IMG/VR virus record: IMGVR_UViG_2563366895_000004
Source: a virus
Lineage: Duplodnaviria; Heunggongvirae; Uroviricota; Caudoviricetes
DNA length: 28,177 nt
Strand: one strand, 5' to 3'
Below the pieces are notes generated by a model that was not told the origin of the DNA, ran no database searches, and was given only the letters and a program-made list of their open reading frames with translations. This document shows positions 6,101-6,778 of this stretch, piece after piece. A program made the translations under genes and the position numbers. The stretch's first letter is position 1. Every line of letters begins with the position of its first letter.

Positions 6101-6778
6101 GGCAGCTTCTGACGCTTTCGTGGTCGCGGTGGATGCAGAAGTGGCTGCAGATTTTTGTGACGCTGCAGCATTCGTTTCTGACGTTTTCGCCGCACCGGCA
6201 CTGGTAGCCGCCGCGCTTTTTGAGGACTCTGCAGCGGCAGCACTTTTTGATGCTTCAGTAGCCTTTGTTGATGCCGTTCCTGCGCTGGAAGACGCTGACT
6301 GAGCCGACGTCGCGGCCTGCCCGGCTGATGTGCTGGCTGCACGTGCTGAGCCTGCAGCATCAGTCGCATGGGTTGCCGCCTCACGGGCTGATGTGCCGGC
6401 ATCGCCGGCTGACTTCTTCGCGGCTGCCGTGTCCTGTGCCACTGCGGACGCGTTACGCGCCACCTCTTCCATCTGCACAACGAGCATGTCCGAAGGATCG
6501 CAAACGATGGTATAGACAATCCATCCATCGATCAGACCAATGGTCTTCCCTGTTCGCGCAGGACCAACAAAAATCACCGCATCGTATTCACGCGATGCCA
6601 GGCAGTTCATGGGCTCAATGATGTAGGGTGTCAGTTCAGGATCCCATGGCACCGAGTTACCAGCCCCCTTGGGAACACGCATGAATTTTTTAACAGCCTC
6701 CGAAATCGGCATGCGACGTGGTGGGGAAAATCCTGCCGATATGTCCCTTCCCAAATTTCGGGCTGATGAAAAACCCAT
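3197..6778 (-). CDS. In-frame fusion: terminase large subunit N-terminal fragment (about 100 aa) joined to side tail fibre protein with C-terminal intramolecular chaperone (peptidase S74-like) domain
   Basis: Residues 1 to about 100 contain a GpA-type terminase N-terminus with Walker-A-like 'GPARTGKT'. From 'MEEVARNASAVAQDTAAAKKSA' onward the protein matches the lambda Stf-type Ala/Ser/Thr-rich shaft ('KSSETNA' repeats) and a central Stf-like block ('GKYYPVII...GGWSD...'). The C-terminus has 'ISDATKAIRKMNGYTYTL' and a terminal coiled coil, typical of endosialidase-type self-cleaving chaperone domains. Confidence 0.8.
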   Translation of the reverse strand: MGFSSARNLGRDISAGFSPPRRMPISEAVKKFMRVPKGAGNSVPWDPELTPYIIEPMNCLASREYDAVIFVGPARTGKTIGLIDGWIVYTIVCDPSDMLVVQMEEVARNASAVAQDTAAAKKSAGDAGTSAREAATHATDAAGSARAASTSAGQAATSAQSASSSAGTASTKATEASKSAAAAESSKSAAATSAGAAKTSETNAAASQKSAATSASTATTKASEAATSARDAAASKEAAKSSETNASSSASIAASSATAAGNSAKAAKTSETNADNSAQAAADSQTASANSATAAKKSETNAKTSEAAAKSSETNAKASETNAKSSETNAAKSAADALNYRNQAQLIVGDNIGLGSAPRDCPDISGNPSGYIGFMRIMSNAKGFPSIASGESSLTGFISQVDGTPAYTGVFQGWATRSLYTYRWNPTIGPQWTRHARKNEVDRLDQWNSETWLYNHDKSMRLGLTGSTWGCYSDTQKKWIPLDVSHGGTGANSLDDAKTNLQIPEGGLTKAMTLNAPGGAVDGKYYPVIIDTSAMNGSGAMLCPVEIKTAGGPASNPLNSNSFFGFIRCGGWSDVRDVAYGSFVCYEKNELGILCIKASQRDYAQHVAFYIHKSAFPVVVQTGYKAKVKVPTEDYVIGDNGVRYKFGVSTSTEDNDKNFVKNVLDFTGGEHGFYSNLPFRQGVSERIALTNGLSFDKNFTVTIPIFVNNGQIKATQSFTAYGTDASNRTFVSQRLQSEGGPVVDQTELRAANASGEIVVRDINNSGNSKFFNFNLDGTFSSYQGLVVHTGQNWSTQHTENVNKFKPIAGSAGGPDGTMVVGGFHAQFSGNYVTQFAGRNSKFWARSFEAGVDKGWKRLLTVDDLNSSTDLAVRSLTTSNPVKSGGGRIDVLGSTSDYSKMDCFVRGFDSTGNSLAWALGSSVGVSKMLSLKNFFSGAEILLNGNDGAVQLKTGAVNGAKAQALTINKDEVNSTVDLTLTKQTGTGNRFVLQNLGNTELSFAAKVWGSSDRQNVFEVGTSAAYLFYAQKTSAGQLFDVNGAINCTTLNQSSDRDLKDDILVISDATKAIRKMNGYTYTLRENGMPYAGVIAQEVMEAIPEAVGSFTHYGEELQGPTVDGNELREETRYLNVDYAAVTGLLVQVARETDGRVTALEEENITLRKNLATAGTRISTLENQVSELVALVGQLTGSEH
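5790..6450. repeat. GC-rich imperfect tandem repeats encoding the Ala/Ser/Thr-rich tail-fibre shaft
   Basis: Repeated 'gc(a/g)tt(a/g)gtttc(g/t)ct'-type units; peptide repeats 'K(S/T)SETNA'. Generates spurious long ORFs in other frames and on the plus strand. Confidence 0.7.

Follow-up and report, generated by a model that had tools for sequence, protein, structure and literature searches.

The window, the whole stretch of 28,177 nucleotides analysed here, is a complete-length prophage at the Qin site, extending from a truncated ydfJ that lacks its N-terminus (1..1284) to the integrase gene (26882..28177). Its Qin-type membership is seen in the truncated ydfJ together with cspI, gnsB, rzpQ, rrrQ, ydfR and the holin, and it is colinear with annotated Qin-site prophages. 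Next to the integrase are an HTH repressor, a ydaT-like gene, DUF977, an AIPR protein, DUF968 and Q; beyond Q follow a block of cargo genes, the holin, ydfR, lysozyme, Rz, cspI, gnsB and the small terminase. Throughout we compare the window with the near-intact prophage that E. coli W2-5 (NZ_CP032989.1; locus L002) carries at this ydfJ site, which is a stand-in for the parent rather than the parent itself, being ~95% identical to the window upstream of cos.

The cargo block between Q and the holin (11549-14345) encodes the lipocalin Blc on the plus strand, a YbgA-like protein (2-thiouracil-desulfurase/DUF1722) and an AraC-type regulator; at this position W2-5 has ydfT, cspF and cspB. A 591-aa AIPR (abortive-infection-type) protein is encoded in the early region at 17594-19369; W2-5 encodes a KwaB-like (Kiwa) protein and QueH there instead, and this position looks like a variable defence-gene slot of this family of Qin-site prophages. 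A DUF1398 (ydfO-like) gene, present in W2-5, AR_0369 and K-12 between gnsB and a 68-aa ORF, is absent from the window at 8159-8381, where ~220 unrelated bp take the place of ~790 bp of W2-5.

The cos region (7499..7522, minus strand) is placed by matches to phage records that stop at the start or end of the record, with the ends of the cdtI and Tritos phage genomes falling between window positions 7511 and 7510. From 7510 the minus strand reads GGGCGGGAGCGT, which we take to resemble lambda cosN. The mosaic boundary of the window against W2-5 coincides with this point (7511/7510): there are 81 differing positions between 8159 and 7521, and only one between 7520 and 6470. Such a boundary agrees with cos-stimulated recombination, as described for DLP12 (PMC3945230). 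The small terminase subunit (6787..7314, minus strand, the ORF extending to 7344) belongs to the DUF1441 family, as identified by Pfam (E 1.9e-44) and by its match to PHROG 141 (E 1.9e-65). The gene is intact, and its product, 175 aa as annotated elsewhere, is the same protein as WP_001389340.1 of W2-5. Its stop codon is overlapped by a ribosome-binding site, AGGAGG (6783..6788, minus strand), 4 nt upstream of the terL ATG. The minus strand at this site reads TAGGAGGAATAATG, and is identical in the intact prophage.

The terL ATG opens one uninterrupted reading frame of 1193 aa (3197..6778, minus strand), and this is a chimera of two proteins, TerL(1-103)::Stf(111-1200), defined from the ORF list, from Pfam and by comparison with the concatenated W2-5 proteins. 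The terL-derived segment (codons 1-103; 6470..6778, minus strand) comprises the N-terminus and the initial ~64 residues of the ATPase domain. Residues 40-110 of the chimera match Pfam GpA_ATPase (E 1.2e-17, profile positions 2-71 of 247), and residues 1-104 match PHROG 15, terminase large subunit (E 1.9e-46). Within the GpA_ATPase match the translation contains the Walker A motif GPARTGKT (residues 72-79; 6542..6565, minus strand), in agreement with the canonical pattern GxxxxGK[ST]. The remainder of the chimera is assigned to the tail-fibre PHROG 6578. This stf-derived segment (Stf codons 111-1200 and the stop; 3197..6469, minus strand) contains the end of the N-terminal domain, an Ala/Ser-rich shaft, the distal domains and a C-terminal Peptidase_S74 (intramolecular chaperone of endosialidase) domain at residues 1050-1101 (3476..3631, minus strand; PF13884, E 1.3e-12). 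Long ORFs in other frames (up to 262 aa) overlap the shaft on both strands at 5740-6621; these are by-products of its repeat composition, not genes. A remnant of the tail-fibre assembly gene without its N-terminus lies at 3017..3148 (minus strand), placed through the 99.86% alignment from the annotation of W2-5 (L002 36805-36936), and the intact relative has the same remnant.

Both parts of the chimera can be followed base by base into W2-5. The terL part is identical at 309/309 nt, with no mismatches, and the stf part at 3272/3273 nt and 1090/1090 aa, giving for the whole chimera no amino acid difference from the concatenated TerL and Stf, and 1 difference in 3582 nt. An exact concatenation of this kind, read from the two sequences, cannot be the work of chance. 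The first-pass annotation had described a GpA-type terminase N-terminus with a Walker-A-like GPARTGKT, and the Pfam and PHROG 15 matches and the 103 codons identical to W2-5 terL bear this out; the segment is identical to intact TerL, and to no tail-fibre N-terminus.

Intact TerL of W2-5 has 699 aa, with the ATPase domain at 40-303 (profile 2-247) and the nuclease domain at 325-643. Of the ~264 residues that make up the ATPase domain, the stub in the chimera retains 64. Walker B and the nuclease domain fall within the deleted part, and in the Pfam search the chimera lacks the PF20454 nuclease match found at 325-643 of the intact protein. What remains is a fragment, not a terminase. A search by sequence for a solved structure related to intact TerL found none. 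At the other side of the joint, the PF08400 N-terminal domain of intact W2-5 Stf, which is presumed to attach the side tail fibre to the tail, covers residues 1-134 (E 8e-72). The Stf part of the chimera begins at residue 111, without 110 of those 134 residues, and gives no PF08400 match in the Pfam search. The first-pass annotation was right that the fusion to Stf is in frame, but the terminase is not joined directly to the shaft: the break in Stf falls within the last residues of the N-terminal domain.

What lay between the two parts can be seen in W2-5. There the order is terS, terL, a W-like gene, portal, a protease/capsid fusion, head-tail genes and tail genes Z to J, and after J come lom, stf (1200 aa), the tfa remnant and ydfJ. 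The window is colinear with it on either flank. Between cos and the join (7520..6470) a single base differs from L002, while window 6471..1 aligns with L002 33482..39952 at 99.86% identity. Missing from the window is an interval of 18,574 bp (L002 14910-33483), and with it the rest of terL, portal, protease/capsid, head-tail connectors, tail genes, J and lom; the fibre attachment domain of Stf is likewise within the loss. Fifteen proteins are encoded between terL and stf in W2-5, and none has a tblastn match in the window, as expected from the first-pass statement that the portal, capsid and tail genes are missing between the halves. The W2-5 prophage and phages cdtI and Tritos are 99-100% identical to the window in terS-terL', and the W2-5 prophage has the same gene order from cos to ydfJ; all three keep the 18.6 kb missing here (terL, portal, protease/capsid, tail, J, lom). 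Two tail genes of W2-5 carry PGAP frameshift flags, T (L002 23265-23595) and L (L002 26971-27670). The former may be the programmed G-T frameshift, and the latter may be a real defect.

The junction (6469..6472, minus strand) joins terL codon 103 (ATG, 6472-6470) to stf codon 111 (GAA, from 6469), in frame, the join lying between window positions 6470 and 6469. The break in terL follows nucleotide 308/309, and that in stf precedes codon 111. Parental terL reads GTGCAGATG up to the break and acc beyond it (in longer form ACCGAAGAT), and parental stf reads ctgatggtg before the break and GAAGAG after it (in longer form CTGATGGTG and then GAAGAGGTG). Across the joint the window reads GTGCAGATGGAAGAG, or in longer form GTGCAGATGGAAGAGGTG. 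The only bases shared at the joint are TG (6471-6470), a microhomology of 2 nt, and the BLAST alignments of terminase and side-tail-fibre DNA correspondingly meet at 6470/6471 with an overlap of 2 nt. Chance alone often gives a 2-nt microhomology. No insertion sequence or foreign DNA is present at the joint; terL runs straight into stf. The protein reads DMLVVQM up to the join and EEVARNAS after it, the methionine being terL codon 103. The junction had earlier been placed at 6466..6480, which does enclose the join; it had been drawn between VVQ and MEEV, one codon to the left of its true position, so giving to Stf a methionine that belongs to terL. In sequence terms the joint is one of illegitimate recombination, and its in-frame outcome happens to be an accident of the event.

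These are the features of a deletion scar: flanks colinear with an intact relative, the interval between them absent, 2 nt of homology at the joint and no mobile element. We therefore regard it as very probable indeed that the fusion was left by a single deletion of 18,574 bp within a lambdoid prophage of the Qin type next to ydfJ. The deletion would have arisen by illegitimate recombination of an end-joining or template-switch type. Might two lambdoid prophages, or a prophage and an incoming phage, have recombined instead? The window is indeed a mosaic with respect to W2-5 (~95% identical upstream of cos and 99.9% from cos to ydfJ), and E. coli genomes hold up to 10 copies of related stf/terL segments. 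Yet both flanks of the joint, cos-terS-terL' on the one side and stf to ydfJ on the other, are near-identical to a single W2-5 prophage, which occupies the same chromosomal site and has these segments in the same order and orientation. Two nucleotides of homology exclude homologous exchange, and an event between prophages would delete or invert chromosomal genes, of which nothing is visible in the window. We consider recombination between elements highly improbable. The deletion within one prophage makes the window a textbook example of a prophage turning cryptic through a single illegitimate loss of its morphogenesis block.

How common is the fusion? Exactly this protein and joint are carried by 11 contigs of different NCBI E. 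coli assemblies, one of them of 4,619,985 bp, and the protein is deposited in NCBI, for example as ELH53475.1. Over this region, four carriers that we fetched match the window at 99.98% identity or more, which points to one event in one clade. The joint occurs in none of 5,426 complete E. coli genomes (0/5,426), in 744 of which terL is intact across the joint point. The TerL(1-103)::Stf(111-1200) allele is thus real but rare. The shafts of Stf proteins are repetitive, and a genome may contain several copies of lambdoid modules, so that a prophage could in principle have been collapsed in sequencing or assembly. However, the recovery of the same joint in 11 contigs of different assemblies, one of 4,619,985 bp, speaks against an artefact, and the joint lies in unique sequence with 2 nt shared, which no assembler would bridge. 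This explanation is barely conceivable. The deletion is recent, and it adds a new allele to a well-known class of events.

The prophage has lost the genes for head and tail and most of terL, which leaves it unable to package DNA or to build particles. By analogy with lambda biology, we infer that there would be no productive cutting at cos, no DNA packaging and no particle formation. The integrase, repressor, Q, the lysis genes (holin, lysozyme, Rz), cos and the small terminase have all been kept, so this deletion alone suffices to account for the absence of virions. The first-pass annotation gave the deletion as the reason why the prophage is defective; it is sufficient by itself, but other defects are possible, W2-5 itself having a flagged L. 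The pattern of loss fits the known signature of cryptic prophages, surveys of which find that terminase, portal and capsid genes are lost preferentially and tail-fibre genes kept (PMC7744054).

The terL start codon, the AGGAGG, the upstream terS and Q are all intact, and translation of the chimera during late transcription is therefore plausible. A scan for consensus promoters and terminators found 25 promoter-like sites against 26.6 expected. If Q still switches on late transcription, translation of the chimera would begin at the terL start codon, and the product would be a tail-less fibre, unattached to any virion and bearing a non-functional terminase stub. Fibres of the S74 family trimerise and self-cleave. 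By analogy the chimeric fibre may still do so through its S74 domain, without the presumed tail-docking domain. The chimera is most likely a neutral by-product. Its stf part would remain as recombination material for related phages; since relaxed homologous recombination with Qin and Rac has been shown to supply lambda with stf/tfa DNA (PMC3945230), the retained stf could act as a donor of host-range material.

The locus has decayed in a similar way elsewhere. In AR_0369, MRE162, EH01-18-02 and K-12 (nohA-stfQ), other decay alleles of this locus likewise connect the packaging region with stf or tfa. The cryptic prophage Qin of K-12 (nohA-stfQ-tfaQ-pinQ) occupies the same site as the window, with the truncated ydfJ, and shares the late cargo essQ/ydfR/rrrQ/rzpQ, cspI, ynfQ/R/N and gnsB. 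As in the window, its packaging genes abut the side-tail-fibre gene and its morphogenesis block is deleted. However, in K-12 the Nu1-like nohA overlaps a 320-aa stfQ remnant with no terL fragment annotated, whereas the window has a DUF1441 small subunit, 103 codons of GpA-type terL and 1090 of the 1200 residues of Stf in one ORF. The two deletions are independent. In AR_0369 (L001 8623-12705; WP_249825693.1, 1360 aa) TerL 331 is joined in frame to Stf 66 with a 7-nt microhomology, TGGAAGG, and in MRE162 (L017 4842-7385; WP_345798882.1, 847 aa) TerL 89 is joined in frame to distal Stf. Both resemble the window in uniting the 5' part of terL with the 3' part of stf, the morphogenesis genes being deleted, but the break points differ. 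A further in-frame fusion, P0089, joins TerL 60 to Stf 97 at the same ydfJ/Qin locus. The fragments of terminase large-subunit pseudogenes that adjoin tail-fibre or assembly genes in DLP12 and e14 of K-12 (aaaD/tfaD and aaaE/stfE) are presumably products of the same style of decay. We take these to be other loci in other phage lineages, annotated as pseudogenes, whereas the window has one open chimeric ORF.

One feature goes beyond ordinary prophage decay, and that is the recurrence of breaks in terL. Joints were found through proteins that share the N-terminus of TerL, clustered at 90% identity, mapping the point of divergence for each. The search appears to be limited in length to ~1.75x the query, so that TerL 1-103 returned proteins of up to 179 aa, and TerL 1-200 up to 350 aa. 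Within this length-limited protein search there are 31 distinct rearrangement joints in terL codons 40-200. Six of them, the window included, are at codon 102-104, and all six were verified at the DNA level. Their partners are a W-like gene (L010/L011, with an ATG overlap), gene T (L013, TG overlap), a DUF2190 gene (L014, CAGnTGAC) and tfa codon 19 (L018), and in L015 the event is an inversion into the tape-measure gene. The step from T to G at terL nucleotides 308 and 309 lies within all six crossover intervals. Nine further joints of the 31 are at codon 89/90, 41 nt upstream of the window's break, with partners that include distal Stf (MRE162), J (L020 and P0208), Stf (L021), Tfa (P0204) and capsid (P0043). 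On the window these two sites are 6470-6473 (terL nt 306-309) and 6511-6512 (nt 267-268). The partner site differs for each event, and the events besides that of the window come from other E. coli assemblies; many are at the same Qin locus. Smaller clusters of breaks are seen at codons 126 and 164.

Against a uniform expectation the clustering has P ~3e-5 for codon 102-104 and ~4e-10 for codon 89/90, in a sample that is length-limited and clustered. The events could be independent, or could be serial deletions from a left-hand site that persists; either way, the clustering favours something on the retained side that promotes breakage, and the terL end of the deletion in the window probably fell on such a point of recurrent breakage. 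We tentatively suggest, as a possibility we ourselves hold to be rather doubtful, that terL nt 267/268 and 308/309 are preferred sites of breakage at which inactivating deletions and inversions of the prophage have repeatedly begun in independent E. coli lineages. A nuclease specific for sequence or structure, a topoisomerase or a site of template switching could be responsible. If this is true, the disarming of this family of prophages is partly deterministic and the window is one of its products. If the recurrence holds, it would provide a tractable system in which to learn what creates fixed-end deletions in prophages.

Several candidate causes have been set aside. An inverted repeat of 6-8 bp has its right arm just 3' of each break, but the folds are ordinary (z = -0.67 and -1.85), and the hotspots at codons 126 and 164 have no inverted repeat like that at the codon 89/90 and 103 breaks. 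Resection by RecBCD limited by Chi was rejected, since the hotspots have neither Chi nor a Chi with one mismatch nearer than 300 nt. The partner 'X' shared by P0039 and P0041, suspected of being an insertion sequence, proved to be a phage tail protein gene. We know of no Pin/Gin-type invertase pseudo-site, type I-E/I-F CRISPR PAM or gyrase cleavage consensus that suits both hotspots. Scans of viral and metagenome contig collections for the hotspot-junction patterns gave no match.

Could in-frame fusions of TerL to fibre or tail proteins be favoured because they benefit the host? A selected, domesticated chimera might sequester the small terminase of incoming relatives, block a receptor or keep downstream genes translated. 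There are several independent in-frame TerL::Stf, TerL::Tfa and TerL::J fusions (AR_0369, MRE162, P0089, P0192, P0204, P0205, P0207 and P0208), and all five deletions at the codon-103 site (5/5) and at least six of the nine at codon 89/90 are in frame. But the phases concerned are the commonest in the deleted region in any case, TG being at codon positions 2-3 in 42% and TA at 3-1 in 53%, and clustering at 90% identity merges out-of-frame variants with short tails, so that out-of-frame joints are under-counted. With corrections for phase and clustering the nominal P = 0.0007 for the in-frame excess becomes about 0.03-0.16, and we have dropped the excess as proof of selection, as it is not significant once composition and sampling are corrected for. 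The allele is moreover rare (11 contigs, and 0/5,426 complete genomes), too young at 1 nt from its parent to reveal purifying selection, and without both the attachment domain of Stf and the catalytic parts of TerL. Selection for the chimera is accordingly very improbable, and we keep to the reading of a neutral scar.

Chimeric ORFs of this kind attract misleading names in annotation pipelines, which matters for calls of prophage completeness and for the curation of protein families. The AR_0369 and MRE162 proteins are named by PGAP 'terminase large subunit family' and 'pyocin knob S74 peptidase', and that of the window 'tail fiber domain-containing protein', so that TerL::Stf chimeras bear three unrelated product names.
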